From Sphingobacteriia bacterium (GTDB lineage Bacteria > Bacteroidota > Bacteroidia > Bacteroidales > TTA-H9): a stretch of DNA of 49,491 nt. The notes below the pieces were generated by a model, which made no database searches, had not been told where the DNA came from, and saw nothing but the letters and a program-made list of their open reading frames with translations. A program made the translations under genes and the position numbers. This document shows, piece by piece, positions 6,655-23,152 of the stretch (position 1 is the first letter of the stretch; each line of letters opens with the position of its first letter). The stretch is taken from NCBI GenBank assembly GCA_021286705.1, contig JAJTBW010000003.1:1-49491 (forward strand), read 5' to 3'.

Positions 6655-8556
6655 GTGGAGAGCCAGATGAATTTAAAACACATAAACAGATCAATAATTC
6701 AGTTAGTTAAACTTAGTCTCTTTAGCTTCCTACTCTTAGCTACTAATTTGATCTATGGAACTAACCTCGCTTTTACAGGTCACCCAACTACAAAGCAGTT
6801 CATTGATACTAAGGAAAGCGGGGGTTATAGTTCGACCGAACATGATCGTTTGCTTAATGAGATGAGCATTATTAAGAGCGAAAATGAGAGACTACGGATT
6901 ACTAAACAGGTTCTAACGGCACTGGTAGGATTCACTATGCTCGTATTCTTCTTTTGGTTAGTCATGAGCAGAACTAAACTTCGAAGACAGATTCAGGAAG
7001 AGAAAGATAAGCTCAGTAGATTTAAGGATGATACGATTAGAAATCTAGATATATACCTGGGAAACCTCAGCCATGAATTGAGAACGCCGTTAAATGGAAT
7101 TACCGGAGGGACGGAGCTTTTAAAGTACACTAATCTAACTGATAAGCAAGAGGAGTTTATTAACCTTTTGGATGTCTCATCCTCAAATATGTTGGCTGCA
7201 ATCAGTGATTACGTCGAGATATCAGATCTTGAAAGGAATGGAGAGACAACGCCAGTCAATCTTCATCACCTAACAGGAGACATTATCGATATGATTAGTG
7301 ATAAGGCAACAGAGCAAAGGATTAAACTAAATCTCTATACAGACACAAAGATACCTCACACTCTTTATCTGAACCAACCAGCAATCCGAAAAGCAATTAC
7401 TGGTTTTCTGAGACTGGCAATTTATCGTCCGAATACTACTGAGATCTCGTTAAAATGCGAGTTGGTAAAGCAGACAGGAAATATATCATCCTTAAAGATC
7501 TCATTTATTGATAATGGAGTGCCCATCATTCCTCAGCGTTTTAAAGAGTTGCTCAATGAAGAGCTTCCAGAGGAGGTAAATCTGTTAGATCTTATTGATC
7601 AGAACAGTGAGCATAAAATCAAAACACTCGCAAAAGTAGTTAAAGGGATAGATGGGGCTTTAGGATTAGAGCCATCATCAGAAAGAGGGAATATCATTTG
7701 GTTTACCTTAGTAGCCAACAGCGAAGAACCTTCTAGTGAAGCAATGGGGATTCACATAATGAAACTACCCAATTTAAAGGGGCTAATAGTTGATGATAAT
7801 CCGAATTCAAGAGCCATCTTCAGGCAGTATATGCAATTTTATGAGATGCGACCAAAAGAGGTGGAGACAGTAAATCAAGCTTTTGAACTACTTAAGACCG
7901 AAGAGACTCACTATCCAATAGTACTACTAAACCTAAGATATCCAACTGCCACCTCCTTATCTGGAATTCTTGAGTTCAAAAAAGCAAATCCTGAATCCAA
8001 GACACGTTTCATCTTGGTCTCTTCAACAGCTATGCCCCTAACCTATCAAGAGTTTAAAGAGTACGGAATTGATGCCATTCTGAGTAAACCTGTAAAGATT
8101 CATGAGTTATATCACATTATCGAAAAGCTTGCGGAAAAAGCCCCTATTCGACCCACCATCAACACAGAGACATCTCAAAGTGAGAAACCCGTTGTCTTGT
8201 TAGTTGAAGATAACATCATTAATGAAAAAGTCGCAAAAGCAACGCTTGAAAGACTAGGATATACAGTCGATGTAGCCGAGAACGGAAAGGTAGCCTTGCA
8301 AAAATACATTGAACACAGATATGATTTAATCTTGATGGATATAGAGATGCCTGAGATGGATGGTATACAAACTACTATCAAAATTAGAGATTTTGAAGCC
8401 TATTCTCCAATAGCGAAACATCCTAGGATCATAGCAGTAACGGCCAATGTTAAACCGGGAGACCGTGAGTTATGCATAAAAGCCGGTATGGATGACTATA
8501 TTAGCAAACCATTTAAACATGAAGAATTAATAAAAGTGCTGACATCAAACAAATAA
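6655..8556 (+). CDS. Membrane hybrid histidine-kinase-like protein: intact HisKA, degenerate HATPase, pseudo-receiver plus canonical receiver
   Basis: Two hydrophobic segments; SHELRTPLNGI; N-box Asn and G2 box absent; REC1 LLNLRYP (Asp to Asn); REC2 DLILMDIEMPEMDG...SKPF. Confidence 0.85.
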   Translation: MESQMNLKHINRSIIQLVKLSLFSFLLLATNLIYGTNLAFTGHPTTKQFIDTKESGGYSSTEHDRLLNEMSIIKSENERLRITKQVLTALVGFTMLVFFFWLVMSRTKLRRQIQEEKDKLSRFKDDTIRNLDIYLGNLSHELRTPLNGITGGTELLKYTNLTDKQEEFINLLDVSSSNMLAAISDYVEISDLERNGETTPVNLHHLTGDIIDMISDKATEQRIKLNLYTDTKIPHTLYLNQPAIRKAITGFLRLAIYRPNTTEISLKCELVKQTGNISSLKISFIDNGVPIIPQRFKELLNEELPEEVNLLDLIDQNSEHKIKTLAKVVKGIDGALGLEPSSERGNIIWFTLVANSEEPSSEAMGIHIMKLPNLKGLIVDDNPNSRAIFRQYMQFYEMRPKEVETVNQAFELLKTEETHYPIVLLNLRYPTATSLSGILEFKKANPESKTRFILVSSTAMPLTYQEFKEYGIDAILSKPVKIHELYHIIEKLAEKAPIRPTINTETSQSEKPVVLLVEDNIINEKVAKATLERLGYTVDVAENGKVALQKYIEHRYDLILMDIEMPEMDGIQTTIKIRDFEAYSPIAKHPRIIAVTANVKPGDRELCIKAGMDDYISKPFKHEELIKVLTSNK

Positions 8557-8566
8557 CAGACTAACA

Positions 8567-9670
8567 ATGAATACAATTAAGAAGATCCTTGTTATTGAAG
8601 ACACTGAGGATGTAAGAAATAACATCAAAGAGATACTTGAGACAGAAGATTACGAGGTCTCTACTGCTGAAAATGGGAAGATAGGAGTTGATGTCGCCTT
8701 AGCTAATACACCTGATCTGATCATTTGTGATATAATGATGCCAGAATTAGACGGTTATGAGGTATTAGAAAGATTAAGAAAGGATATTCGTACTGCCACT
8801 ACCCCTTTCATTTTCCTCACTGCAAAGAACACCAGAGAAGACCATCGTAGGGGAATGGCTCTTGGAGCAGATGATTACATAGCAAAACCTTTTACAATCG
8901 ATGAGCTTATTAACGCAGTTGAGGCTCGCATTAACAGAGCACATGAATTTAAGCAAAAGAGTGAGGAAAAACTTAACGAACTGACACGAAATATGGGAAC
9001 ACCCATTACACGTGTTATTCAAGAACCACTTAAGGCAGTGATAGGTTTCTCGCAATTGGTCATGACAGAATATGCCAATATGGAGAAACCCGAGATAGCT
9101 GAATTCATGTCGCTAATCTTCAAAGCCGGGCTTAAACTCAATGGGATCGTTCATAAGACGCTTCTCTATTATCAGCTTGAGGCTGCTATTTTCAACCCAA
9201 CCACATCTGATCTATTAAAAAAACAAGGTGCTTCTGATAGCCATCCAGCCATTCAGGATGCTATAAATGAGTTAGCTCAACGATATGGTCGTCAGGCCGA
9301 TCTACAACTTCATCTAGAGGCTCATAATGCCGTAAAAATCCCATTTGATCTCCTTAAAACGTTGGTTAGTGAAGTAATAGAAAATGCAATGCTCTATTCA
9401 CCAAAACGAACCCCTATTAAGGTTATCTCTGGAAGCGACCAGGAAAAGACTGTTATTACCGTAGCCGACGAAGGACTAGGGATGTCTGATGAACAAATAT
9501 CAAAGACTGGTGCTTTCTCTACACTCTCAACAGATGGGCAAGAAGCTGAAGGTGTAGGACTAGGTCTTACAATTACAAGAAAAATTGTAGATCTTTTTGG
9601 AGGCTCTCTCTCTATAAGAAGTACGCCAGGGATAGGAACAACTGTTAGGATAAACATTCCAAATATTTAA
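8567..9670 (+). CDS. Receiver + His-less HisKA-like + intact HATPase protein
   Basis: REC DLIICDIMMPELDG; PITRVIQEPLKAVIGFS in place of xxxHELRTPLNGILGFS; ENAMLYS, DEGLGM, GVGLGL, GIGTTV. Confidence 0.85.
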   Translation: MNTIKKILVIEDTEDVRNNIKEILETEDYEVSTAENGKIGVDVALANTPDLIICDIMMPELDGYEVLERLRKDIRTATTPFIFLTAKNTREDHRRGMALGADDYIAKPFTIDELINAVEARINRAHEFKQKSEEKLNELTRNMGTPITRVIQEPLKAVIGFSQLVMTEYANMEKPEIAEFMSLIFKAGLKLNGIVHKTLLYYQLEAAIFNPTTSDLLKKQGASDSHPAIQDAINELAQRYGRQADLQLHLEAHNAVKIPFDLLKTLVSEVIENAMLYSPKRTPIKVISGSDQEKTVITVADEGLGMSDEQISKTGAFSTLSTDGQEAEGVGLGLTITRKIVDLFGGSLSIRSTPGIGTTVRINIPNI

Positions 9671-9674
9671 TGAG

Positions 9675-9708
9675 AAAAGCCCCAACACTTAGTTGGGGCT
9701 TTTTTTTT
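9675..9708 (+). terminator. Intrinsic terminator
   Basis: aaaagccccaac-actta-gttggggctttt plus T-run. Confidence 0.9.
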
Positions 9709-9742
9709 ATAAACGCAGTTAATACTTTTGCGCAAAAAAACT

Positions 9743-10642
9743 TTGAAGCCATCAGCACACGTCTATACCCTCATTATCTTCTCGATGATCTTCTGGGGTA
9801 TCTCATTTGTTTGGACTAGAATTGCCTTAGGGGAGTTGCAACCTATTGCTTTGGTTTTTATCCGCTTGGTTAGTTCCTCCGCCATTTTACTAATTGGCTT
9901 AAAGCTTATTAATAAACTTGAGTTCATAAAAAAAGAAGATCTAAAACACTTTCTAATAGCCTCCTTCTTTAACCCTTTCCTCTATTTCCTTGGAGAAACC
10001 TTCGGTATAAAGTATACTAGTCCGATTATTAGCGCCGTACTTATCTCAACCATCCCCGTATTTACACCTGTTGCAGCCTTTCTCATATTGAAAGAACGAT
10101 TGACCATTCTAAACATACTGGGGCTTTTCATCTCCTTTTTTGGTGTATTAGTCATGCTTGGCTTTCAAAGTGGATCAGACGGAAACAGTATAATTGGAAT
10201 ACTATGCTTACTATTTGCCGTCTCAGCAGCCATTGCCTATTCAATTAAACTCAAGAGGCTATCCTCAACTTATGGACCCTTTTCAATTGTAGCATGGCAA
10301 AACATGATTGGAAGTCTGATGTTTCTACCATTCTTCCTAATATTTGATTTGAATTCAACATTGTCTGCAGCCTTTTCGGCTAAAGTGTTAGGATCAATCA
10401 TTCTACTGGTTGTGTTTGCCTCATCATTGGCTTTTATCTTTTATACCAAAGTGAATAGTATACTAGGTGTGAGCAGGACAGCAGTTTTCACCAATTTCAT
10501 CCCGGTATTTACCGCTCTCTTCTCTTGGATGATATTAGATGAGGAACTTTCACTTCAAAAAGCTACGGGTATGGCTCTAGTCATTGGAGGAGTTTTTCTA
10601 ACTCAAATCAAGGGTTTTAACCTTAAATTAGGAAGTAGATAA
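9743..10642 (+). CDS. DMT/EamA family transporter
   Basis: About 10 TM helices, FWGISF, PVFT...LKER twice-repeated EamA pattern; ORF-track start 9728 overlaps a TACTTTTG -7 box (9723-9730), so TTG 9743 is preferred. Confidence 0.9.
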   Translation: MKPSAHVYTLIIFSMIFWGISFVWTRIALGELQPIALVFIRLVSSSAILLIGLKLINKLEFIKKEDLKHFLIASFFNPFLYFLGETFGIKYTSPIISAVLISTIPVFTPVAAFLILKERLTILNILGLFISFFGVLVMLGFQSGSDGNSIIGILCLLFAVSAAIAYSIKLKRLSSTYGPFSIVAWQNMIGSLMFLPFFLIFDLNSTLSAAFSAKVLGSIILLVVFASSLAFIFYTKVNSILGVSRTAVFTNFIPVFTALFSWMILDEELSLQKATGMALVIGGVFLTQIKGFNLKLGSR

Positions 10643-10684
10643 AGATAAAATCACAGGTAAAAAATCGCAAAAAGCATAAAAAGG

Positions 10685-10715
10685 CTTGTAGAATAAAAAC
10701 AAATTTGTAATTTTG
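10685..10715 (+). promoter_or_regulatory. tRNA promoter (-33/-7)
   Basis: CTTG-N19-TAATTTTG. Confidence 0.75.
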
Positions 10716-10732
10716 CACTCCTCAAAACCCTT

Positions 10733-10809
10733 GGCGGGGTAGCTCAGTTGGTTAGAGCGTCGGATTCATAACCCGGAGGTCACGAGTTCAATTCTCGTCC
10801 CCGCTACCA
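10733..10809 (+). tRNA. tRNA-Met (CAT), probably elongator
   Basis: Acceptor GGCGGGG/CCCCGCT, D-arm AGCTCAGTTGGTTAGAGC, loop TTCATAA, T-loop GTTCAATT, encoded CCA; G1 paired so not initiator-like; tRNA-Ile2 not strictly excluded. Confidence 0.92.
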
Positions 10810-10811
10810 AG

Positions 10812-10851
10812 ACAGGACAAATGAAATATATTTCGTTTGTCCTGTTTTTTT
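10812..10851 (+). terminator. Intrinsic terminator after tRNA
   Basis: acaggacaaatgaaa...tttcgtttgtcctgt plus T-run. Confidence 0.85.
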
Positions 10852-10998
10852 ATGTTGAAATTCATTGCTTATCTACTACTATTTGTTCAATGATTGAATG
10901 GATAAGCAGGTAGAAATGTAAAAAAATTAGATTAGTGGTAATAGAGATATACTGGCGATAAATCAGACTGAATTTCCATGCCATGGGTTTTAATCCGA

Positions 10999-11364
10999 TT
11001 AAGCAATCATTTCATTTACCTTCTCCAGAAATTCACTTATAGAAAACGGCTTATGAAGCACCTGCTTATAGCCTATGACTTGTACCATCTTTAAGTAATC
11101 ATTTGACCCAATTCTTCCACCACCTGACATTACAAGAACTGGGAAAGTGTGACCAGAGTCTTTAAGACTAAAAAGCAGCTCGAAACCATCAGAATCGGGC
11201 ATGATAATATCAGTGACGAGCAAGTCGGGCTTAACAGTTGTAAGTAATTGCATTGCCTCCAGACCATCCTGAGCCTCATAAACAGAAAAACCTTCACGCT
11301 CTAAGACATCTCGTAATCCCTCTCGAACCATCTTTTCATCCTCAACCAGAATAATCGTTTTCAT
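10999..11364 (-). CDS. Single-domain response regulator (CheY-like)
   Basis: ILVEDE, PDLLVTDIIMPDSDG, VMSGGG, LHKPF; no output domain. Confidence 0.9.
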   Translation of the reverse strand: MKTIILVEDEKMVREGLRDVLEREGFSVYEAQDGLEAMQLLTTVKPDLLVTDIIMPDSDGFELLFSLKDSGHTFPVLVMSGGGRIGSNDYLKMVQVIGYKQVLHKPFSISEFLEKVNEMIA

Positions 11365-11657: not shown

Positions 11658-12845
11658 CTATTTAGGTCTTCTTTCGTAACTTCCATATTTAACAATAACG
11701 GTATCTTTTACCATCCATTCACCTCTCGCCATTGTACTGATCAGAGAAAGATCGTCAGGTTTAAGAAGAAGAAGATCAGCATCAGCCCCAGAGGTCAATC
11801 GCCCCTTACTATTAAGCTTTAGGATTTTTGCCGGATTAAGGGTAACAGGTAACAAGGCTAAATCTAATTTCATTCCTTCATAATGAACACAGTCTGCCAT
11901 CTCCTTTAAATTTGAGTGAGGAGTTGCAGTTACCATACTGGTCAACTCGCCTGTCACAGGGTCAAAGCCGGGAAGAGAACCGCCGGCATCACTGGTAAAA
12001 GTAACATGCTCAGCAGGTACGCCTGAATCGATGAGCAATTTATAGGCTTTACTGGGTTTAATCTCCTCATCCTGATAATATGGATAGCTGGAGGTTGTTA
12101 TATCTACAAATCCTTTTACGCCATAGGACTTAGCATCTTCGAAAATCCACTCATTACGATTACAGTGAGTGGGAAGGAATTGTCTGAACTGAAGCATACT
12201 CTCATTTACCGCCTTATAAATCGGAGCAAACGGTTCTTTGGCATCTCCCATATGAAGATTCACAATTCCTGCTTTTCCACCAAGCATACCTCCTACCCTA
12301 GCATGTGCCGCAAGTCTGATCAGCTCAGCTGTAGGCGGAACAGACGAACGATGATCAGAGATAGCCACTTCGCCAACCCCAATCACTTCTTGAATCATTG
12401 AAATATCCTTAGAAACATCGCCTAGAATGGTAGGAGTTGGATGTTGATATGAACCGGTATAAATCCAAACAGATAAGCCCTCAGCATTAAGACCTTTTGC
12501 TCGCATAAGTACTGACTCAACAGTTCTGGTAACCCCATCGGTTCCCAGACAACCAATAATCGTAGTAACACCAGCTGTGGTATAATCGCTTAATTGAAGT
12601 TCTGGAGTACGTGACGCTGGGCCTCCTTCCCCCCCAGCTCCGGCTATATGTACATGCGCATCAATCAGCCCAGGTACAACTATCATTCCCTCAGCATCAA
12701 TCACCTCGACATCTTCCAAATTGATATTTATATGCTCTGAGATCTGCAGGATTTTATCACCACCTATCAGGATGTCCTTTTTTCCAAGATAAGAGGGAGA
12801 ATAAACTTCACCCCCTTTAATAAGTTTCACTAGATTTTTATGCAT
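11658..12845 (-). CDS. iadA: Isoaspartyl dipeptidase / beta-aspartyl peptidase (amidohydrolase superfamily)
   Basis: DAHVHIAGAGGEGG, GCLGTDG, TGSY, GEVAISDHRSS, NLHMG, PTHCNR, TSDAGGSLP; start moved to ATG 12845 (MHKNL); no signal peptide. Confidence 0.93.
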   Translation of the reverse strand: MHKNLVKLIKGGEVYSPSYLGKKDILIGGDKILQISEHININLEDVEVIDAEGMIVVPGLIDAHVHIAGAGGEGGPASRTPELQLSDYTTAGVTTIIGCLGTDGVTRTVESVLMRAKGLNAEGLSVWIYTGSYQHPTPTILGDVSKDISMIQEVIGVGEVAISDHRSSVPPTAELIRLAAHARVGGMLGGKAGIVNLHMGDAKEPFAPIYKAVNESMLQFRQFLPTHCNRNEWIFEDAKSYGVKGFVDITTSSYPYYQDEEIKPSKAYKLLIDSGVPAEHVTFTSDAGGSLPGFDPVTGELTSMVTATPHSNLKEMADCVHYEGMKLDLALLPVTLNPAKILKLNSKGRLTSGADADLLLLKPDDLSLISTMARGEWMVKDTVIVKYGSYERRPK

Positions 12846-12930: not shown

Positions 12931-14925
12931 ATGTTCACTAAAGTTAAACTTAACGTTATCAGACCATATCGAATACTTCTTGGTTTGGTTCTAGTGTCAG
13001 TAATTCACATTAACTCTTATTCTCAGGGTAGATTTTTGATTGTTGGAGGGGGCAATGAAAAAGAGACTACCAATAGTTGGAGCACGCCTGCATACAAATG
13101 GGCTGCTGAGGGGAAAAGAGTTGCCATCATCTCGACATCAGGAAGTGGTTATCCAGACTACTTTAAGAATTGGTGCAATGCCAAAGATGCAAAAGACTTC
13201 ATTGTAGCCAATAGCACTACGGCGAATCAACCCGCCTTATATGACTCCTTAACAACCTACCAAGTAATCTTCTTTGCCGGTGGAGATCAATGGGACTATT
13301 ATTCTCAATACAAAAACACAAAACTAGAAGAGGCCGTAAACGCCGTGTACATTTCAGGCGGGACAATTGGTGGAACCTCAGCCGGAATGCACATTCTTTC
13401 AGAGACCCTCTTCACTGCCGAAAACGGTACCGTTTACCCTGATGAATGCATCATCGATCCAAAAAACAAATATGTTAAACTAGCCAATGATCTCTTCAAT
13501 TTTTTCCCCGATCTGATTTTTGATACCCATATGGCAGAAAGAGGGAGAATGCCTCGATTGATCTCATTTGTTGCTAACAAAGCCCTAACTGACAATACGA
13601 AAATCATAGGACTTGGTCTGGATGACATGACATGCATGACCATCGATGAGTTTTCAGTCGGGACAGTATACGGAACGGGGGTAGCCACAATCGTTAAAAG
13701 TGAGCCAAGCAATTTTACCCAAAATGATGGAAGGTTAATTTCCGATAACGTCAGGATCACCCAACTTCTTGAAGGATCTACCGTAAATATGAAAACAATG
13801 GAGATCCTTACCCAAAACATGTCATTAACAATCACCCCAAAAACCAAAGGAGAAAATAGCTTATTGACCATTGTTGCAGGAGGAGAGGGATCAAATGGTA
13901 ATAACAATACTTTATTAGACTTCTGGGCAAAATTGGCAGCACCTTCCCAAACTACTTTGATTATCACAAAGGAGGTCAATGCTTATGTTACAGATCTAAA
14001 GAATAAAGTAGAACAACTGACTGGAAAATCTGCTATAGTGGTAATAGCATCAACAACCAATGGAAGTTCAACAACAGTTTTATCACAAATACTCTCATGT
14101 GGAAGAGTAATTTTTACTGAGAATGAAGATAATATAGCATCAACCTTCCTTCAATCCGAGAATGGACAAACACTACTAAACCAGATTAAAAGTCAAAACT
14201 TGCCGGTTGCCTTCCTAGGTTCAGATGCCAGATTCATTGGAAAATCGGTCGTAACAAACCTAGAGACCGAATATGCATCTTATGATGGAAAAATGAATTT
14301 CCTGCCCGGAATCGGACTATTATCAAACACCGTAATAATTCCGGAGACCTTCAGCAATTCTGATTTTTATGAGAATACAATTACCGCTTTGCCCTACGCT
14401 ATGATTCTTGATTCACTGCAATATGGCATTTGGTTAACGGGTGATAATTACGTATGCTACTCGACTAACGGATCAAAAGCAACCTTACTAGGTGGAGGGA
14501 AAGCCCCAGTCCTTCTTTTAACTAACAATGGTGATATTATTGCAGATTTTAGTTCAAAAACAGCCAATGGAAGTACCAGCATTAAACCTAGGCAAGTCGC
14601 TGGTTTTTCAGAGATGACCTTTACCTCGTTTGATGATTCTAAAGAGATTACAGTTGGAAACAGTGTAGCCATTGAAAACATTGAAAAAGATCATAATCCA
14701 ATTTCTATTACAGTAATTGATAATGAAGTGACATTCTCAGAGATATCATTACCATTTAGCTATAGACTAATTTCAATAGATGGAAAACTCATTGACTCGG
14801 GAATAAGTTACATGCCTCATATATCGATTCCAAGAAATGCTTTAACTTCACCCCAAGTTATTTTGTTAAATGTCTCTTACGGAAAAAACACTCAGACCTT
14901 TAAACTCATTTTCCCGACAAAGTAA
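12931..14925 (+). CDS. Secreted cyanophycinase-family (peptidase S51) protein: active domain + degenerate duplicate + T9SS-like C-terminal domain
   Basis: Signal peptide ending SYS|Q; LIVGGG, FFAGGDQ, GGTSAG (Ser150), DTHMAERGRMPRL (His200), GLDD; second copy from ~aa311; C-terminal ISIDGKLI...LLNV....TQTFKLI. Confidence 0.85.
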   Translation: MFTKVKLNVIRPYRILLGLVLVSVIHINSYSQGRFLIVGGGNEKETTNSWSTPAYKWAAEGKRVAIISTSGSGYPDYFKNWCNAKDAKDFIVANSTTANQPALYDSLTTYQVIFFAGGDQWDYYSQYKNTKLEEAVNAVYISGGTIGGTSAGMHILSETLFTAENGTVYPDECIIDPKNKYVKLANDLFNFFPDLIFDTHMAERGRMPRLISFVANKALTDNTKIIGLGLDDMTCMTIDEFSVGTVYGTGVATIVKSEPSNFTQNDGRLISDNVRITQLLEGSTVNMKTMEILTQNMSLTITPKTKGENSLLTIVAGGEGSNGNNNTLLDFWAKLAAPSQTTLIITKEVNAYVTDLKNKVEQLTGKSAIVVIASTTNGSSTTVLSQILSCGRVIFTENEDNIASTFLQSENGQTLLNQIKSQNLPVAFLGSDARFIGKSVVTNLETEYASYDGKMNFLPGIGLLSNTVIIPETFSNSDFYENTITALPYAMILDSLQYGIWLTGDNYVCYSTNGSKATLLGGGKAPVLLLTNNGDIIADFSSKTANGSTSIKPRQVAGFSEMTFTSFDDSKEITVGNSVAIENIEKDHNPISITVIDNEVTFSEISLPFSYRLISIDGKLIDSGISYMPHISIPRNALTSPQVILLNVSYGKNTQTFKLIFPTK

Positions 14926-15030: not shown

Positions 15031-16281
15031 ATGAAAAAGCTAACAATACTATTATTTATCATCACTTATGTCTCTTCATATAATCTAATTGCGCAAAATG
15101 GGCACCTGATGATCGTCGGAGGGGCATTAGAGGACACTAACCAAGCTATCTACAAGCGAATGCTGGAACTTGCAGGAGGACCAACCCAGGCAAAGATTGC
15201 TATCATACCAAGTGCCAGCGGATATGCTACTACAGGACCTCAGATATTTGCCAATAACTGCATTAAATTCGGAGCCTTACCTTGGAATTGTGAAATCATT
15301 CAAATTGCATGCGTTGATGATCCGGACACTAAAGAGATAGATGAATCTACATGGGCATCAAATGCCAATAATCCCGAAATAGTTCAAAAGATCAAGGAGA
15401 GTAACCTTGTTTGGTTTACCGGTGGTGATCAGATGAGGACAATGAAACTCTTGATTCCAAATGGAAAACCTACGCCTGCATACGAAGCAGTTGTAGATGT
15501 TCTTAACCGTGGCGGTGTAGTTGCCGGATCTAGTGCCGGAGCAGCTATACAAAGCATCGTAATGATAGGTGGAGGAACCTCTTTAGGAGCTATAATCAAT
15601 GGCGAAGCTAGTTCTATCGAGATGACAGAAGAACCCGATCATGAAGGCATCTACTTAACAAAAGGCTGTGGTTTCTTTCCATACGGCATTGTTGACCAGC
15701 ACTTCAGTCAGCGGGCTAGACTAGGCAGATTAACATTAGCAGCATGGCTAAACAGAGAAAAATGGAGTCAGGCAATAGGAATTGATGAAGACACAGCCCT
15801 AGAGGTAGATTTAAAGAATGGAACTGGAATGGTATGGGGAAGAAATCACATTCTTGTAATTGACTTAAAACAGAGTCAAGGAATAAAGAACGATCAAGGA
15901 TACTCTTTCAAAAATGTCTCACTATCAATCTTACAACAAGGAGATGAAATCGATCTTAAACAAGGACAAATTACTATAGCCAAAGATAAAACACTATTAA
16001 AAAAAGAGACAAAAGACAAGAGAACCAGCTTTATTCAAACAGGTGCCCTTGGTGGCGATGGCTATTCACTTATTGACATGGTTGGAGAAATTATAACACA
16101 TAGTGAAGAAGAAGAGACTTTAAACAATTTAACACTGATTAGTCAAGATACGGCTGTACAATTTAGTCTTAAGAATACAAAAGAGACTCTTTTATATCGT
16201 TCAACCAAACAAAAGAACCGTTTCTCGGTTACTCATCTATCATTTGACATCACACCACTAAAAATTAAAGTTCTTAAATAG
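15031..16281 (+). CDS. Exported cyanophycinase (CphE-like, peptidase S51)
   Basis: Signal peptide MKKLTILL...LIA|Q; LMIVGGA, IIPSAS, VWFTGGDQ, AGSSAGAAI, VDQHFSQRARLGRL, GIDEDTAL give a complete Ser-His-Glu triad. Confidence 0.92.
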   Translation: MKKLTILLFIITYVSSYNLIAQNGHLMIVGGALEDTNQAIYKRMLELAGGPTQAKIAIIPSASGYATTGPQIFANNCIKFGALPWNCEIIQIACVDDPDTKEIDESTWASNANNPEIVQKIKESNLVWFTGGDQMRTMKLLIPNGKPTPAYEAVVDVLNRGGVVAGSSAGAAIQSIVMIGGGTSLGAIINGEASSIEMTEEPDHEGIYLTKGCGFFPYGIVDQHFSQRARLGRLTLAAWLNREKWSQAIGIDEDTALEVDLKNGTGMVWGRNHILVIDLKQSQGIKNDQGYSFKNVSLSILQQGDEIDLKQGQITIAKDKTLLKKETKDKRTSFIQTGALGGDGYSLIDMVGEIITHSEEEETLNNLTLISQDTAVQFSLKNTKETLLYRSTKQKNRFSVTHLSFDITPLKIKVLK

Positions 16282-16340: not shown

Positions 16341-19247
16341 ATGAATTATAAATTATTAACACTAATTGCTGTTATCCTATTTCCGCTTATCAGCTGGGGA
16401 CAGGATATAACTGTGAATGGCACAGTTACTTCGGCAAAAGACCAAACCCCTATACCAGGGGTTACGATTCAATTAAAAGGTACGGTGCGTGGAACAACCA
16501 CCGATATTAACGGACTCTTCCAGCTAAAAGTACCGGGAAATGGCATTTTGGTCATTTCGATGGTTGGAATGGAAAAACAAGAAGTTTCGGTTAATAACCA
16601 AACTACTATTAAAGTACAGATGACAGATGAAGCGGTTGATCTTGGCGAGGTCGTTGTTGTTGGATACTCAACAACAAGCCGTAAGTTAGTCACTGGTTCT
16701 GTTGGAGTTGTAGGAAGTGAGCAGATTAAAAACACTCCCCTAAGAACTATTGACGGAGTTCTACAGAGTAAGACCTCAGGAGTTCAAATTAACCAGAATT
16801 CCGGAACACCAGGGTCAGCAATGTCAATCAGACTTAGAGGTGGAAGCTCAATTAATGCAAGTAATGCGCCTCTGGTTGTAATCGATGGAATTCCTGTAAT
16901 TACAGGCGATTTCAGTCAAGTAGGTTTCGAAGGACAAGGTATTAATGCCCTGAGTGATCTTAACCCCGGAGACATTGAATCATTTACTGTTTTGAAAGAT
17001 GCTTCAGCGACTGCTATTTATGGTTCGAGAGGATCAAATGGCGTTATTTTAATTACAACAAAGAAGGGGCAAATAAAGAAGACGGATGTTGACATCTCAA
17101 TGTCATACGGATTCCAGACCTTCCCATGGGAGAGAAGACCAAAGCTCCTAAATGCAGCCCAGTACAATGAAGTTATGGGCACTAATGTTCAGGGAATTGA
17201 TACCGATTGGTTGAAGGAGGTGTTACAAACAGCACCAACAATGAACACAGAATTATCAATTTCGGGAGGCGACCAGAAAACGAGATTCTACATGTCAGGT
17301 AACTATTATAATCAGGATGGTATCGTAAAGGGAACAGATTATGAACGTTTCAGTGGCAGATTAAATCTTGATCACACCATCAATAATCGTTTCACAGTTG
17401 GTGGAAATCTTGCTGTTACCTATTCAAAAAATAATCGTGTTGAAGGTGACCAATCCATAAATGGGCCACTACCCAATGCTATCGCTCTTCCTGCTATCTT
17501 CCCGGTGTATGATGCAAACGGCAACTACGATGAAACAGGGCCTTACGCCAATCCAGTAGCCATTGCAAATGAAACAGTGAATCAGGCTTTCACAAACAGG
17601 ACAAATGGTAACATCTACTTGGATGCAAAAATCATTGAAGGACTAAGTTTCAACACAAAGTTAGGTGCCGATGTATATACACTCAGAGAGCACACCTACG
17701 ACCCTGTACTTACCAGACAAGGTAAGAAATACAACGGACTAGGAATCGAAGGAAATTCAACAGTGACCAATATTGTTAGCAATAATGTACTACAATATAT
17801 TACACAGATTAATGAAAAGCATAACATTGACGCATTAGCGGGTTATAGTTTTGAAAAGTACGCTCGTCGCTCAAGCTACATAGAGGCTATCGATTTCCCC
17901 AATGAAGATTTCCAATATATCACATCAGCTGGTACTATCAGAGCTGCCTCAACCAGTGCTACTGATAGAGGTATGAATTCCTGGTTTGGACAATTCAAAT
18001 ACAATTATGATTACAGATATCTTATTCAGGTAACAGCCAGATATGATGGTTCTTCTAAATTCGGAGAGAACAACCAATATGGTTTCTTCCCCGCCGTATC
18101 ATTAGGTTGGCGCTTATCACAAGAGAAATGGATGAAACAATATTCAAAACTGAATGATCTAAAACTGAGAGCAAGCTGGGGGGTAACTGGTAATGATGGT
18201 ATTTCCGATTTTGCCTCATTAGGGCTCTATAGCGGAGGCGCTAACTACAATCAAGGATCTGGTATTTATCCATCTCAACTTCCTAACCCTGACTTAAAAT
18301 GGGAGACCACTAATCAATTAGGAATTGGCGTTGATCTTGCTGCATTTAACAATCGACTCACTGTTACAGTTGATGCTTACCTCAACAAGACCAAAGACCT
18401 ATTACTTGATAGACCTTTACCTCCATCATCTGGGTTTACTACCATCACAAGTAACATTGGGGAATTGGAAAACAAAGGGTTAGAAATAACTATTAACACC
18501 GTCAACCTCAACGGCGAGTTCAAATGGGAGAGTAATTTTAACTTCACAATGAATCGTAATAAGGTTACAAAACTTTACAACGGTGAGCCTATACCAGAGG
18601 TAGGTCGTGGTTCAAACTCAGTTCGTGAGGGTGAAGCAATTGGCGTGTTCTGGGGCTTTAATTGGCTTGGAGTAGACCCAACTACCGGTGAATATGTCTA
18701 TGAAGATGTTAATAAAGACGGACAACTAACCGATGCTGACAAGATGGTTATTGGTGACCCCAATCCCGATTTCTATGGTGGCTTCTCAAACAACTTTAGT
18801 TATAAAGACTTTGAGTTGAATGTACTTCTGAGTTACAACGTTGGTAACGATATTTTCAATGGAATGAGGATTTATGCTGAAGCTATTTCAGGGTCAGATA
18901 ACCAGTTAACAACTGTTCTTGACCGCTGGCAGAAACCAGGTGATATAACGAATATGGCAAAAGTCGGTGATAGCTATGCATCCTCTAGACTTCTTGAGGA
19001 TGGATCATTCTTGAGGATAAAAAATGTTACACTGGCATATAAGTTCCCTAAATCAATCGTATCTAAGTTGCACCTCAGAAATGCCAGAGCTTTCTTTACA
19101 ATACAAAACCTGTTCACCTTTACCAACTATTCGGGCATGGATCCGGAAGTTAACTATGCAGGAGATGATAACCTTCGTAGAGGAACAGATTTCTACACCT
19201 ATCCCCAATCCAGAACATTTATGGCTGGTTTAACATTAGGTTTTTAA
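16341..19247 (+). CDS. susC: SusC/RagA family TonB-dependent transporter
   Basis: N-terminal CarboxypepD_reg-like domain, EVVVVGY, DIESFTVLKDASATAIYGSRGSNGVILITTKKG, PDLKWETT, C-terminal Phe. Confidence 0.97.
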   Translation: MNYKLLTLIAVILFPLISWGQDITVNGTVTSAKDQTPIPGVTIQLKGTVRGTTTDINGLFQLKVPGNGILVISMVGMEKQEVSVNNQTTIKVQMTDEAVDLGEVVVVGYSTTSRKLVTGSVGVVGSEQIKNTPLRTIDGVLQSKTSGVQINQNSGTPGSAMSIRLRGGSSINASNAPLVVIDGIPVITGDFSQVGFEGQGINALSDLNPGDIESFTVLKDASATAIYGSRGSNGVILITTKKGQIKKTDVDISMSYGFQTFPWERRPKLLNAAQYNEVMGTNVQGIDTDWLKEVLQTAPTMNTELSISGGDQKTRFYMSGNYYNQDGIVKGTDYERFSGRLNLDHTINNRFTVGGNLAVTYSKNNRVEGDQSINGPLPNAIALPAIFPVYDANGNYDETGPYANPVAIANETVNQAFTNRTNGNIYLDAKIIEGLSFNTKLGADVYTLREHTYDPVLTRQGKKYNGLGIEGNSTVTNIVSNNVLQYITQINEKHNIDALAGYSFEKYARRSSYIEAIDFPNEDFQYITSAGTIRAASTSATDRGMNSWFGQFKYNYDYRYLIQVTARYDGSSKFGENNQYGFFPAVSLGWRLSQEKWMKQYSKLNDLKLRASWGVTGNDGISDFASLGLYSGGANYNQGSGIYPSQLPNPDLKWETTNQLGIGVDLAAFNNRLTVTVDAYLNKTKDLLLDRPLPPSSGFTTITSNIGELENKGLEITINTVNLNGEFKWESNFNFTMNRNKVTKLYNGEPIPEVGRGSNSVREGEAIGVFWGFNWLGVDPTTGEYVYEDVNKDGQLTDADKMVIGDPNPDFYGGFSNNFSYKDFELNVLLSYNVGNDIFNGMRIYAEAISGSDNQLTTVLDRWQKPGDITNMAKVGDSYASSRLLEDGSFLRIKNVTLAYKFPKSIVSKLHLRNARAFFTIQNLFTFTNYSGMDPEVNYAGDDNLRRGTDFYTYPQSRTFMAGLTLGF

Positions 19248-19264: not shown

Positions 19265-20593
19265 ATGAAAAGAAGTATATATCTTATCCTAGCTCTGATC
19301 ATTAGCTCTGCTTGCAGTAAAATACTTGATGTTGAACCGACAGCGAGCATAGATGTAAATGAGGCTATCAAAAACAAAAGAGGCGTCGAGAGAGCCTTAA
19401 ATGGGACTTATGATGCCCTACAACAGGCAGGTTCGTACGGTAGAAATATGGCTTTGATGGCTGATTTAGCCGCCGATAACCTTTCTTGGACTGGTACAAC
19501 TTACGATTATGGTCAAATAGCTGACAAGAAAATCCTATCTAATAATGTGGTCATTGATGGAATGTGGACTAGCTCTTATGATGCTATTAACCGTGCAAAC
19601 AATATCATTGAACGCCTTCCGTCGGTAACTGATATGACCGATTCTGAAAAGGCATCCGTTGAGGGTGAATGTAAGTTTATCAGAGCTTTAATGCACTTTG
19701 ATCTCGTAAGATATTGGGGGCAAATCCCTCTAAAGCTACAAGCCACGACGAATTTGAATAATATCAATACACCTGCCAGCAGTAAGATAGATGTCTTGAA
19801 CGCTGTAATTAACGACTTGAAATATGCTGTCCAGACAATGACTCCGGCCGCCAAGCAGGGTTATGCCTCTGGTGATGCTGCTAAAGCATTACTCACGAGA
19901 GCCTATCTGTACCGTTTTTATCTTACAAATGATGTAACTGATCTTAATACATTGATTCCACTTGCTAATGAGATTGTTACTGCCTACCCTTTGACTGGTT
20001 CGTATGCATCTCTCTTTGGCAATAATTCTGCTAATACTGAATCTCTCTTCGAGGTAGTATTTAATGAACAGGATAAAAACGTTATTGCTCAATATCTATA
20101 TCCAAGATCTCTAACAGGTAGATATGAGTTTGCACCAACTACAGACCTTATTAATTCTTTTGAGGCAGATGATCAAAGAGGTCAGATGATTCTGGTTGAT
20201 GGATCTAATTTCCCGTATGCTAATAAATACCAGGATGTAAGTGCCGGTACTGATAGAGTCTATGTCATCAGATCAGCTGAAGTACAACTTATTCTTGCTG
20301 AAGCAAAATACTTATTAAATGAACCAGCAGGCGATGTACTCAGTGCCCTTAATGCAATTAGATTAAGAGCGGGACTCTCATCAATTCTCTCTGCAACGCA
20401 TGAGCAATTGCTATCACTTATTCTTTTGGAATACAGACATGAATTTGCTTTTGAAGGCCATCGTTGGCACGATCTTATCAGAACGAACATGGCCGTTTCG
20501 GTTCTTGGCATTGAGCAGTTCAGAACACTTTGGCCAATCCCAATAAGTGAGACTCAATCGAATAATGCAATCAAACAAAACGAAGGTTATTAA
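19265..20593 (+). CDS. susD: SusD/RagB family outer-membrane lipoprotein
   Basis: Lipobox SSAC; Y..INRAN.II, GECKFIRA..HFDLVRYWG.IP, R.AEV.L..AEA, EFAFEGHRWHDL.R, QNEGY. Confidence 0.96.
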   Translation: MKRSIYLILALIISSACSKILDVEPTASIDVNEAIKNKRGVERALNGTYDALQQAGSYGRNMALMADLAADNLSWTGTTYDYGQIADKKILSNNVVIDGMWTSSYDAINRANNIIERLPSVTDMTDSEKASVEGECKFIRALMHFDLVRYWGQIPLKLQATTNLNNINTPASSKIDVLNAVINDLKYAVQTMTPAAKQGYASGDAAKALLTRAYLYRFYLTNDVTDLNTLIPLANEIVTAYPLTGSYASLFGNNSANTESLFEVVFNEQDKNVIAQYLYPRSLTGRYEFAPTTDLINSFEADDQRGQMILVDGSNFPYANKYQDVSAGTDRVYVIRSAEVQLILAEAKYLLNEPAGDVLSALNAIRLRAGLSSILSATHEQLLSLILLEYRHEFAFEGHRWHDLIRTNMAVSVLGIEQFRTLWPIPISETQSNNAIKQNEGY

Positions 20594-20702: not shown

Positions 20703-21908
20703 ATGAAGAATATCTTTAAAACCCTTCTCTTCTCTTTGCTAGCCACCTTTGCGTTGGTGTCATGCAATAAAGATGATGAGATTAAAAAGCCGGCTGCTTC
20801 AACTCAAGCCGACTTCTCTTATACTGTGTCAAATGATGGGTACTTCCCATGCACCGTTACTTTCACAAACAAGTCATTAAACGCAAATTCCTACTCATGG
20901 AATTTCGGAAATGGCACTACCTCAACAGAGGTTAATCCTGCAGTTACATTTGATACCCCTGGTGTTTATACTATTACACTCACTTGCACCGGAGATAACA
21001 GTGTCTATTATAATAACCTAACAAAGACCATTCAGGTAATTGTAAAAGATCCTAATGCGGGAAAGACTCACGTAATGTATTACACTACTAGAAGTTCAAC
21101 AGGTGGTGATGTCTGGATGGTTATTCTTGATGGAAATAATCCGGTACCTCAGAGGTTTAACGCGACCCAACTGGAACGTCCATATGGAATTGCTGTTGAC
21201 ACCGCAACCAAAAAAGTCTTCGTAGCCGATTATTATAACGAGAGAATTGTTAGATATGACGCTGATGGTAAAAACGAGACGGTAATTCTTGATGCCGCAG
21301 TTCCTGGTCAGGAAATAGTGGGGTCACCTCAGGGAATTATCGTAATTAAAGACAAGCTATACTTCGGTAGCCCTAATGGTATCTACCGTTGCAATCTTGA
21401 TGGTACTTCTCCTGAGAAGTTCATCAATCTCGAAAGCACCGGGGCGTCCTATCCGCTCGATCTCTATTATGTAGCATCAACTAAGACTTTCTATTTTGCC
21501 AATGATAAAACAGACTACGAAGGAGGCCTATTTAAGGTAAACTTTGATGGTACTGGACTGACTAAGATCATTCCTGATATTGACAATACTGCCATTGAAG
21601 TTGATACTGTAAACAATAAGATCTATGCTGTCACCTATAGTCAGGATGGAACTCTGTTTAGTGAAAATGGAGTTTACATGATGAATTTAGATGGCTCAGG
21701 GGTTACGAAGATCGGCGACTTTGGGGCAAAGGCTACATGGGGAATTGCCCTTGACCAAAAAGAGAAGAACCTATACTGGAGTTTCAAAACAAGCAATGAA
21801 AACCCCGACGGTAAAATTATCAGGAGCAATCCCGATGGTTCCGGACAAACAGACTGGCTTACAGGTGCTAGTCCGCATGCCATGATTATCACTGATATCA
21901 AGCTATAA
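20703..21908 (+). CDS. Surface lipoprotein with PKD domain and LDL-receptor-class-B-like beta-propeller
   Basis: Lipobox LVSC then NKDDE; PKD motif VTFTNKS.NA.SYSWNFGNG..ST..NP..TF..PGVYTITL; repeats GIAVD..KKVF, GIALD...NLYWS, NLDGS/NPDGS. Confidence 0.85.
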   Translation: MKNIFKTLLFSLLATFALVSCNKDDEIKKPAASTQADFSYTVSNDGYFPCTVTFTNKSLNANSYSWNFGNGTTSTEVNPAVTFDTPGVYTITLTCTGDNSVYYNNLTKTIQVIVKDPNAGKTHVMYYTTRSSTGGDVWMVILDGNNPVPQRFNATQLERPYGIAVDTATKKVFVADYYNERIVRYDADGKNETVILDAAVPGQEIVGSPQGIIVIKDKLYFGSPNGIYRCNLDGTSPEKFINLESTGASYPLDLYYVASTKTFYFANDKTDYEGGLFKVNFDGTGLTKIIPDIDNTAIEVDTVNNKIYAVTYSQDGTLFSENGVYMMNLDGSGVTKIGDFGAKATWGIALDQKEKNLYWSFKTSNENPDGKIIRSNPDGSGQTDWLTGASPHAMIITDIKL

Positions 21909-22336: not shown

Positions 22337-23152
22337 CTATTTTATTAGTACCTTCTTGACGATAGTTTGCTTACCAGAGGTTACCTTAACCATATAAAGG
22401 CCTGAAACTAAAGATGAGACATTAACTTGTAACGGAGCAGTTGCGTTATCAAATGAGAGTACCTTTTCACCTGTTAAACTAAAAATATCGACGATAGCAT
22501 TATGAAAATCGCCTTTAACAACCATATTATTCACAACAGGATTAGGCATTATATCAACCCTTGAAAGCACAGGTGACTGTATGCCAATTCCAGACTGACC
22601 AGTTAGTTGAATACTATCGAGTAAAAGTTTATACATATCACTGCAGTCATAATGAACCCAAGCAAGGTAAATCGTTTTGCCGGCATAAACTGATAAGTCA
22701 ATATTTCGCGGATCCCAAATACCATTAGAGGCCCAGATGGGTAAAGTCTCTTCATAGACATTATCAGTAAATGAGGCTACCTCATTGTTTGTGCTAGAAA
22801 CCATCAATTTATAATGCTCTTGATAATAATTATCATCAGCACCTGATATTACATAGTGAAGAACCAAACCACCGGTCGCTGAAGTCAGATTAATTGCAGG
22901 AGAGATGAGCCAGTTGTCAGGTGTTAAAGGACTTCCGTCCCATGAACGACTTGTCATATACTGCTCCATTACAGGGCCTCCATCATACCAATCCCAATAC
23001 CAGTTCTGGGTATCACCATCCTGATCAACAAACTTCCAGGTGTTAACCACAGTAGCTGAGTCAGTAAATTGCTCTTCAAATAGCACAGTAGTCTGACTGT
23101 GTAAACTTCCTAAGAAGAACAAAAACAAAATACTAAGTAAAAAATTCTTCAT
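22337..23152 (-). CDS. Cleaved-adhesin (choice-of-anchor J) domain protein with T9SS type A C-terminal domain
   Basis: W..VDQDGD..NW, LTPDNWLISP, YYQEHY, DLS.YAGKTIYLAWVH, LLLDSI; CTD MPNPV...IFSLTGEKV...LVSGLYMVKV....VKKVLIK. Confidence 0.9.
   Translation of the reverse strand: MKNFLLSILFLFFLGSLHSQTTVLFEEQFTDSATVVNTWKFVDQDGDTQNWYWDWYDGGPVMEQYMTSRSWDGSPLTPDNWLISPAINLTSATGGLVLHYVISGADDNYYQEHYKLMVSSTNNEVASFTDNVYEETLPIWASNGIWDPRNIDLSVYAGKTIYLAWVHYDCSDMYKLLLDSIQLTGQSGIGIQSPVLSRVDIMPNPVVNNMVVKGDFHNAIVDIFSLTGEKVLSFDNATAPLQVNVSSLVSGLYMVKVTSGKQTIVKKVLIK

Follow-up and report, generated by a model that had tools for sequence, protein, structure and literature searches.

A probable cell-envelope cyanophycinase with a fused, catalytically dead second S51 domain in a conserved Bacteroidota gene module

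Cyanophycin is a widespread nitrogen store, a nitrogen-storage polymer of bacteria other than the one considered here, and in blooms, in microbial mats and in wastewater sludge its turnover outside the producers decides who obtains this nitrogen. Among the enzymes that degrade it, CphB of Synechocystis PCC 6803 (Protein Data Bank (PDB) entries 3EN0 and 7UQW) is intracellular and works as a dimer, and a CphB-like enzyme from Pseudobacteroides cellulosolvens has also been solved (7UQV). Per the available text of PMC9974463, PMC10206079 and PMC3235067, CphE of Pseudomonas anguilliseptica and P. alcaligenes is secreted and scavenges environmental cyanophycin, and CphI is given as intracellular in the available part of PMC10206079. 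The same part of that paper summarises a cyanophycin utilization locus of Bacteroidetes, citing Ben Hania et al. 2017 (Environ Microbiol 19:1134). Here we describe a gene at positions 12931..14925 (+) of a 49,491-nucleotide stretch of contig JAJTBW010000003.1 (assembly GCA_021286705.1, Sphingobacteriia bacterium), hereafter the window, which encodes a protein of 664 amino acids (aa) with two S51 domains on one chain, and which lies in exactly the gene set that this summary gives for the locus.

Both domains of the protein share the fold of the two solved CphB-type enzymes, and domain 1 has in common with CphB the GTSAG motif, the histidine, the Arg-rich stretch and the GGDQ motif. In contrast to CphB, which is one domain, the window's enzyme carries a second S51 domain without the triad, has Asp rather than Glu as the triad acid and D-T-H rather than D-Q-H, begins with a signal peptide, ends with a domain of the sorting type, and scores below the TIGR02069 cut-off. 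CphE, compared here by description only, is a single-domain enzyme of about 44 kDa with a leader peptide in the available text of PMC3235067, nearer in size to a 434-aa cyanophycinase encoded next to the two-domain gene than to the 664-aa protein. The explanation that we favour, and consider probable as a whole, is that the two-domain enzyme is a cyanophycinase of the cell envelope, a pseudo-dimer on a single chain that works within a scavenging module.

The open reading frame (ORF) has four parts, namely a signal peptide, domain 1, domain 2 and a C-terminal beta domain (Table 1). The signal peptide is probably cleaved before Gln32, a residue that is also Gln at the aligned position of the family consensus; it contains no Cys, and the two-domain enzyme is therefore not a lipoprotein. 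A search at E <= 0.001 retrieved 316 relatives, which the databases label only as "cyanophycinase", "hypothetical" or "T9SS sorting domain protein". All conservation counts given below as fractions of 63 come from an alignment of 63 homologues, and an AlphaFold model of the whole protein made from that alignment has a mean predicted local distance difference test score (pLDDT) of 88.2 and a predicted template modelling score (pTM) of 0.82, with the signal-peptide helix at residues 10-27. Mean identity to 60 homologues is 54.5 % for domain 1, 36.3 % for domain 2 and 15.7 % for the C-terminal domain, which is the fastest-evolving part of the enzyme. An earlier note, made from the sequence alone, had quoted the motifs GGTSAG (residue 147, with Ser150), DTH (198, with His200) and GLDD (229, with Asp232) in the first half of the protein and TIVAGG (313), VIFTENED (393), FLGSDA (428), IIPETF (469) and GIWLTGD (499) in the second, and every one of them is in place. 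Two relatives, P0224 (834 aa) and P0266 (796 aa), have extra domains between domain 2 and the C-terminal domain, with sequence repeats in P0224; by eye, G-M-S-D replaces the window's G-L-D-D in P0224, so that the second Asp alone is retained.

Domain 1 is a catalytically intact S51 domain of the cyanophycinase type. Over residues 89-240 it scores 32.4 bits with PF03575, whose cut-off is 23.9, and it also matches TIGR02069, where it reaches 96 bits (E 2.4e-27, residues 36-284) and stays below the equivalog cut-off of 126.6; TIGR02069 is matched by 63/63 homologues at E <= 0.01, the best at 1.5e-27. A phmmer search with domain 1 against PDB sequences retrieved 7uqv (3.5e-14) and CphB itself (3en0, 2.9e-9), in alignments that span GGDQ, GTSAG, D-x-H, the R-x-R-x-x-R stretch and G-L-G-x-D-[DE], and a Foldseek search with the whole predicted model matched 7uqw_A (2.1e-17), which gives the S51 fold for domain 1. 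KaiC, also among the whole-model Foldseek matches, was dropped as meaningless at a root-mean-square deviation (rmsd) above 20 Å. Across the 63 sequences 57 columns of domain 1 are invariant, and the residues Ser150, His200, Asp231, Asp232, Gln120, Asp198, Thr199, Arg204, Arg206 and Arg209 are each conserved 63/63.

The canonical S51 triad of Ser, His and Glu is not what domain 1 carries, given that Ser150 and His200 are present with Asp232 at the Glu position. A live S51 domain with a Ser-His-Asp triad, having Asp where CphB-type enzymes have Glu, is what the earlier note had proposed, and the fold, the profile matches and the invariance of these residues bear it out. BLASTP pairs Asp232 with Glu271 of the neighbouring cyanophycinase, whose GIDE motif occupies residues 268-271, and in the PDB alignment its counterpart is the Glu that ends GLGIDE in both 3en0 and 7uqv. 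The triad is present, then, but it is not new to family S51, having been described already for MccG of Nocardia vaccinii and clade V, which includes B. subtilis PepE and in which Asp replaces the triad Glu clade-wide (available text of bioRxiv 10.1101/2022.03.27.485901). That source, as far as its available text goes, gives the PepE triad as Ser120/His157/Glu192, and it separates S51 clade V, whose members act on aspartyl-nucleotides or dipeptides, from the cyanophycinases of clade IV. For a cyanophycinase-like sequence, the combination of Ser-His-Asp with D-T-H is a family-specific variant.

Domain 2 had been read in the earlier note as a dead tandem copy of the S51 domain, aligned with domain 1 motif by motif. 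When modelled alone (pLDDT 89.0, pTM 0.88), the region adopts the S51 fold, and the predicted order of its secondary-structure elements parallels that of domain 1. In a Foldseek search of this model against the PDB all 20 matches at E <= 0.001 are S51 structures (best 7uqv_B, 2.4e-13, template modelling score 0.72/0.75), and 30 of 30 matches found with language-model features fall in Peptidase_S51 clusters, with a top score of 0.92. VIA-align gave Z scores of 25.0, 24.7 and 24.5 to 7uqv, 7uqw and 3en0 (rmsd 2.5-2.8 Å over 243-247 residues; best single match 7uqv_A, Z 25.0, 2.5 Å over 243 residues), against 15-18 for PepE-type structures and 6.4 for the first non-S51 row. Because the Z scores separate in this way, the predicted model of domain 2 is specifically cyanophycinase-like, its C-terminal beta part included. 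The duplication is evident from the predicted fold and not from the motifs; domain 2 alone retrieved no Pfam or NCBIfam match, even at E <= 10.

None of the three triad residues is conserved in domain 2. The nucleophile-elbow position, located by predicted secondary structure, is 429, where the 63 sequences read V30/A20/L6/I6/T1 (hydrophobic in 62/63); position 474, after the "His strand", reads Y34/F29, and the two "acid" positions read N49 (504) and H49/D6 (505). The pairing of Ser431 in FLGSDA with Ser150 in GGTSAG was rejected as a coincidence, since position 431 is D26/E23/S6, that is Asp or Glu in 49/63 and Ser in just 6, and the elbow lies at 429. The domain is nevertheless under constraint, with 24 invariant columns at a mean identity of 36.3 % to 60 distant homologues, and its invariant residues lie mostly at the places of S51 active-site motifs: Asn398 at the GGDQ place, Thr473, Glu481-Asn482 and Trp501-Leu502-Thr503. 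The elbow itself is conserved as Phe428-x-Gly430-[DE]-Asp432-Ala-Arg434, in which Asp432 is near-invariant (58/63).

Such a pattern could also be taken to mean that domain 2 holds a new, non-serine catalysis in which conserved Asp, Glu and Thr residues do the work, for instance on another bond of the polymer or on oligomers, and the invariant Glu481, Thr473, Thr503, Arg434 and Arg554, together with Asp432, do stand at positions that correspond topologically to the S51 active site. We regard this as most improbable, given that the elbow position is hydrophobic in all but one of the sequences, that several of the candidate residues are buried in the interface predicted below, and that no family model recognises domain 2; no S51 member is known to work without a Ser nucleophile.

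A phmmer search with domain 2 against 1.84 billion representative sequences gave 206 matches at E <= 0.001. In the full-length proteins among the best 150 of these, the domain sits at about residues 300-570 of about 650-830 aa. Four short matches were read, of which P0121, P0133 and P0154 start inside domain 1 and are fragments, and P0189 starts at the beginning of domain 2; these four include no convincing free-standing domain 2, with no search aimed at shorter or longer forms.

To examine how the two domains pack, domain 1 and domain 2 were folded as separate chains, each with its own slice of the alignment, in three runs and three controls. The interface scored 0.94 in 3/3 runs, against 0.00 for the best of the three controls, with 145-154 contacts, at least 93 % agreement in contacts between runs and a partner pLDDT of at least 91. 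Of 157 solved complexes 116 attain the pass mark for such scores, as do 2 of 215 mismatched pairs; these rates are rough here because a custom alignment was used. In the prediction, the domain-1 strand 268-281 runs antiparallel to the domain-2 strand 556-568, with the pairs 278-559, 274-564 and 270-566/567 (sums of about 837-838); the paired strands are the same element in both domains (E268-279 and E557-567), and the pairing is centred on both. The remaining segments also match one to one (169-175 with 450-451, 202-211 with 473-492, 231 and 233 with 501-505, and 248-255 with 524-530). On the domain-1 side the interface takes in residues 202-208 (Glu203, Arg204, Arg206) and 231/233, in loops on either side of the catalytic His and the acid.

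Contacts that mirror themselves in this way form the two-fold pattern of a homodimer-like interface, as predicted. Since the interface mirrors itself and its score stands so far above the controls, the prediction supports the view, also held in the earlier note, that the two-domain enzyme is a single-chain pseudo-dimer. Because domain 2 abuts the live-site loops through a two-fold-like interface, it would take the place of the second protomer.

The genes around the two-domain enzyme (Table 1) were compared across 76 related loci on contigs from one genome per species, with neighbours counted where the contig leaves room. Both domains are present in 73/76 loci, whose hosts are mostly metagenome-assembled genomes (MAGs) of Bacteroidales, Lentimicrobiaceae, Saprospiraceae and Prolixibacteraceae; the other three (L074-L076), in which there is no more than an incomplete domain 1 or a single-domain relative at a distance, were dropped. 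Upstream of the two-domain gene, 58 of 65 loci have IadA, divergently in 57, and a second cyanophycinase follows directly downstream in 59/66. SusC is found downstream in 52 of 56 loci and SusD in 50 of 54, and a PKD/propeller lipoprotein comes directly after SusD in 48/48 (48-92 % identity). These genes form a conserved six-gene module of IadA, the two-domain enzyme, a canonical cyanophycinase, SusC, SusD and the PKD/propeller lipoprotein, the last being an unannotated sixth member and a candidate surface binding protein.

Table 1. Positions in the window of the parts of the two-domain gene and of the other module genes
Feature	Position	Strand	Basis and remarks
Sec/SPI signal peptide, aa 1-31	12931..13023	+	Read from the translation; hydrophobic core ILLGLVLVSVI
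Domain 1, catalytically intact cyanophycinase-type S51 domain, aa 32-300	13024..13830	+	PF03575, TIGR02069 and PDB matches
Ser150 codon, nucleophile in G-T-S-A-G	13378..13380	+	Aligned with GTSAG of CphB 3en0; Ser 63/63
His200 codon in D-T-H (D-Q-H in CphB and in the neighbour)	13528..13530	+	His 63/63, Thr199 63/63
Asp232 codon, site of the triad Glu in CphB-type G-I-D-E	13624..13626	+	Asp 63/63
Domain 2, second S51/cyanophycinase fold without the triad, aa 305-575	13843..14655	+	Fold searches; 24 invariant columns
C-terminal beta domain, diverged homologue of the type A sorting domain for type IX secretion, aa 578-664 (about 87 aa)	14662..14922	+	Family hidden Markov model; predicted model
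IadA isoaspartyl dipeptidase	11658..12845	-	TIGR01975, 439.2 bits (cut-off 331.25), match from residue 38
Single-domain canonical cyanophycinase, 434 aa	14977..16281	+	TIGR02069, 137.1 bits (above cut-off); GSSAG 184, DQH 240, GIDE 268
SusC/RagA-type TonB-dependent transporter	16341..19247	+	TIGR04056, 891.3 bits
SusD-family lipoprotein	19265..20593	+	PF07980 and PF14322; N-terminus ...ISSAC-SK
PKD and SGL/NHL-like beta-propeller lipoprotein	20703..21908	+	PF18911, 44.1 bits; SGL and NHL below cut-offs; ...ALVSC-NKDD (lipobox LVSC)

The IadA gene likely starts at Met32 of a 426-aa ORF that runs to 12938, and its product is probably cytoplasmic because it has no signal peptide. The 8-base overlap of this ORF with the two-domain gene at 12931 is an artefact of taking the longest ORF (GTG start), and the Met32 start leaves a divergent intergenic region of about 85 bp. 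The 434-aa neighbour has a signal peptide, no Cys, no recognised C-terminal sorting domain and a C-terminal extension of about 110 aa. The last 109 aa of this protein (326-434; 15952-16278) matched no Pfam family, and tblastn finds the extension in 3 of the 76 loci at E <= 1e-5, so that it evolves fast.

Some further observations on the loci may be recorded here. In the nearest other locus (L001), SusC is 96 % and SusD 87 % identical to the window, and the enzymes are 68-83 % identical (IadA 83, domain 1 75, domain 2 69, second cyanophycinase 68), with the C-terminal domain at 47 %; the transporter is thus either far more conserved than the enzymes or was recently exchanged. In Saprospiraceae-type loci (L003, L014, L045 and L054) the single-domain cyanophycinase is not downstream; it is encoded upstream, on the other strand, with IadA on one side and the two-domain gene on the other. 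L054 is a contig of a MAG labelled Deltaproteobacteria, and as it has the complete module of the Bacteroidota type, SusC and SusD among it, an error of binning seems to be behind it. Upstream of the module, at 6655-11364 of the window, are two genes for hybrid histidine kinases/response regulators, one for an EamA transporter and one for a response regulator of a single domain; EamA and the response regulator were rejected as module members, being common only to L001. Just past the module, a gene at 22337-23152 (-) encodes a small protein with Cleaved_Adhesin and a normal sorting domain for type IX secretion (PF18962, 44.9 bits).

The window's own genome (4.16 Mb, 95 % complete) contains just these two cyanophycinase genes, and a search of it for cyanophycin synthetase (CphA) found none above the cut-off. 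The locus thus combines clustered genes for cyanophycinase, the iadA gene and a transporter with no CphA above the cut-off, which are the marks of a cyanophycin utilization locus, and, since no synthetase was found, the source organism appears to be a scavenger of cyanophycin and not a producer. At least half of the sampled words of the gene pair occur in each of 14 metagenome runs, three of which are possibly the window's own source; the samples were of wastewater, fuel cells, sludge, biofloc, biofilm and marine sediment.

Several observations count against parts of the reading set out so far, and we take them together in this and the following paragraphs. First, there is no sequence-level evidence for the duplication: BLASTP of domain 1 against domain 2 and the C-terminus gave E 0.051, which is not above chance, albeit in the register of the IFFAGGDQ~VIFTENED pairing given in the earlier note, and a profile-profile comparison (hhalign) of the domain-1 and domain-2 sub-alignments of the 63 sequences gave a probability of 0.09 %. 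Second, the interface is a prediction and, as cyanophycinase assemblies have been solved, its passing score may reflect likeness to them. Third, all four RNA-library runs (3 studies) hold contigs that are 95-100 % alike and fall on the two-domain gene, its neighbour, SusC, SusD and IadA, but these contigs (151-379 nt) are short, shallow and cover parts of genes, so that they do not show transcription and their gaps are uninformative.

Fourth, the TIGR02069 score of domain 1 falls short of the equivalog cut-off, and two residues, the triad acid (Asp for Glu) and the residue before the catalytic His (Thr for Gln), differ from CphB, so that the specificity could differ as well. The substrate might accordingly be another isopeptide or an aspartyl-rich peptide, and the locus a general peptide-uptake module; indeed, IadA from cyanophycin clusters accepts many isoaspartyl dipeptides in the account that PMC10206079 gives in its available text. 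We judge this to be quite unlikely. A canonical cyanophycinase, above the cut-off in the window, adjoins the two-domain gene in 59/66 loci, and the gene set is that of the literature's cyanophycin utilization locus, as far as PMC10206079 summarises it. A further argument comes from the substrate-binding residues of domain 1. The pocket of CphB next to the nucleophile, reportedly made up of Gln101, Asp172, Gln173, Arg178, Arg180 and Arg183 (Law et al. 2009), aligns with Gln120, Asp198, Thr199, Arg204, Arg206 and Arg209. Five of these six presumed pocket positions match, with Thr199 in place of Gln, and the conserved Arg-x-Arg-x-x-Arg, Gln120 and Asp198 (each 63/63) would thus line a pocket of the CphB kind.

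Fifth, much of the conservation in domain 2 could serve the interface instead of a ligand. Nine of its 24 invariant residues lie in the predicted interface (Thr473, Glu481, Pro488, Trp501, Thr503, Pro526, Gly547, Arg554 and Gly558), so that upkeep of the interface could explain much of the pattern. Domain 2 would then be a purely structural partner that stabilises domain 1 and binds no ligand, and the enzyme would release beta-Asp-Arg dipeptides, as befits the description of cyanophycinases as dipeptide-releasing exo-enzymes in the available text of PMC10206079. We hold this to be possible, though we do not favour it. The invariant or near-invariant polar residues Asn398, Asp432, Arg434 and Asn482 stand at the former active site, and all four, like the elbow (428-434) as a whole, are outside the listed interface, an unlisted residue being merely uncertain; moreover, SusC and SusD together with a second cyanophycinase that has a signal peptide (59/66 loci) would be hard to explain if only a dipeptide of about 290 Da entered the periplasm.

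Because the cleft of domain 2 is conserved and polar, we infer instead that the domain may bind polymer. That products longer than dipeptides would reach the periplasm is suggested by the TonB-dependent transporter and by a second enzyme with a signal peptide only. The gene context fits both polymer binding and the release of oligomers, and proves neither. In its fullest form this idea, which we put forward tentatively and with less confidence than not, would have the dead domain keep the old active-site cleft as a non-catalytic cyanophycin-binding site beside the live one. An exo-dipeptidase scaffold would thereby become a depolymerase at the surface, one that grips insoluble granules and sets oligomers free, with SusC and SusD importing these and the periplasmic cyanophycinase finishing them. 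If true, this would be a full outer/inner division of labour of the kind seen in polysaccharide utilization loci, for a polyamide and around a pseudoenzyme domain.

The last group of adverse observations concerns export by way of type IX secretion (the secretion system being abbreviated T9SS). In the earlier note the C-terminus had been held to resemble a T9SS type A C-terminal domain (CTD), and the TIGR04183 hidden Markov model (HMM) had been proposed as a check. That check came out negative: residues 575-664 and 556-664 matched no Pfam or NCBIfam family, TIGR04183 and PF18962 included, at E <= 10, and the window's CTD is absent from the 111 CTD matches of its own genome. In place of P-N-P and G-x-Y the window has I-D-N and Q-V-I, and these motifs are lost in P0001, P0011 and P0012 as well; the relatives P0001-P0012 (97-100 % coverage, 68-100 % identity) carry PF03575 and no PF18962. 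Most of the more distant relatives listed carry PF18962, and P0012 and P0015 were negative for a sorting domain when checked.

The CTD may then have decayed in this clade, in which case the enzyme would be periplasmic or poorly exported and would act on fragments imported by SusC and SusD, alongside the neighbouring cyanophycinase. The lost motifs, the missing HMM match and the rate of change of the CTD, the highest in the protein (mean identity 15.7 %; domain 1, 54.5 %; domain 2, 36.3 %), all speak for such decay, which we nonetheless think unlikely. TIGR04183 is matched by 54/63 homologues, and a profile made from the corresponding region of the other 60 homologues recognises the window's CTD with 18.6 bits (E 5e-8, Z = 1). 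The domain is therefore homologous to the CTDs of its relatives, and the resemblance given in the earlier note holds, though weakly in the window's own copy. Throughout the clade it remains full-length and in frame (77 % identity to P0011, 45 % to P0012), with all other module genes retained, and the model predicts seven strands between 592 and 661 (pLDDT of 10-residue blocks 55-90). A T9SS CTD is a seven-strand beta-sandwich (3+4) in the available text of PMC11285876, which calls that architecture essential. T9SS machinery is present in the window's own genome, where SprA (2344.8 bits) and PorV (351.5 bits) are above their cut-offs. The family is thus a T9SS cargo family, and the window's copy carries an eroded but full-length CTD. 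Because the hallmark motifs are lost and no Pfam or NCBIfam HMM finds the domain, export is less certain for the window's copy than for the family, though we still lean towards its continued export by the T9SS.

With these points weighed, the pseudo-dimeric cell-envelope cyanophycinase that we favour would work as follows. The protein would leave the cytoplasm by the Sec pathway, lose its signal peptide and be exported by the T9SS through its CTD, a step that is firm for the family and likely for the window's copy. Domain 1, with Ser150, His200 and Asp232 and a putative pocket of Gln120, Asp198 and Arg204/206/209, would hydrolyse the beta-Asp-Arg polymer cyanophycin taken from the environment. 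Domain 2, presumably an ancient and catalytically dead duplicate, would be the built-in second protomer, as in a dimeric cyanophycinase, packed on domain 1 through the mirror-image interface that abuts the live-site loops, and its polar cleft (Asn398, Asp432, Arg434, Thr473, Glu481/Asn482 and Thr503) may hold polymer. The products would be imported by the adjacent SusC and SusD and trimmed by the neighbouring canonical cyanophycinase, which is probably periplasmic, and cytoplasmic IadA would split the dipeptides to Asp and Arg.

Should this be so, the two-domain family (316 relatives, with both domains in 73/76 loci) appears to be a main tool of Bacteroidota for the turnover of cyanophycin. 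The fused dead twin would offer a clean model of the passage from a dimeric enzyme to a pseudo-dimer on one chain and of what a pseudoenzyme domain contributes, and the module an example, open to testing, of Sus-like uptake directed at a peptide polymer. On the practical side, a secreted and stable single-chain cyanophycinase could help in making beta-Asp-Arg dipeptides or oligomers.

The type of locus and the class of enzyme are already known. A full-text search, from which subscription journals were largely missing, found neither the fused dead twin, the pseudo-dimeric packing or the sixth conserved gene in print nor a paper that combines 'cyanophycinase' and 'T9SS'. New here are the self-mirroring predicted interface with the residues that make it up, the erosion of the CTD in this clade although the genome has 111 normal ones, the recognition of Ser431 as coincidental and the PKD/propeller lipoprotein in 48/48 loci. 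Compared with polysaccharide utilization loci, the module follows the same logic with the same transporter pair (TIGR04056 and PF07980), and it likewise has one exported enzyme, one enzyme with a signal peptide only and a lipoprotein gene after susD; by this analogy, the enzyme steps would be split between an outer and an inner enzyme as they are in those loci. It differs from them in that the substrate here would be a polyamide and not a glycan, and in that the outer enzyme bears a T9SS-type CTD rather than a lipid anchor.

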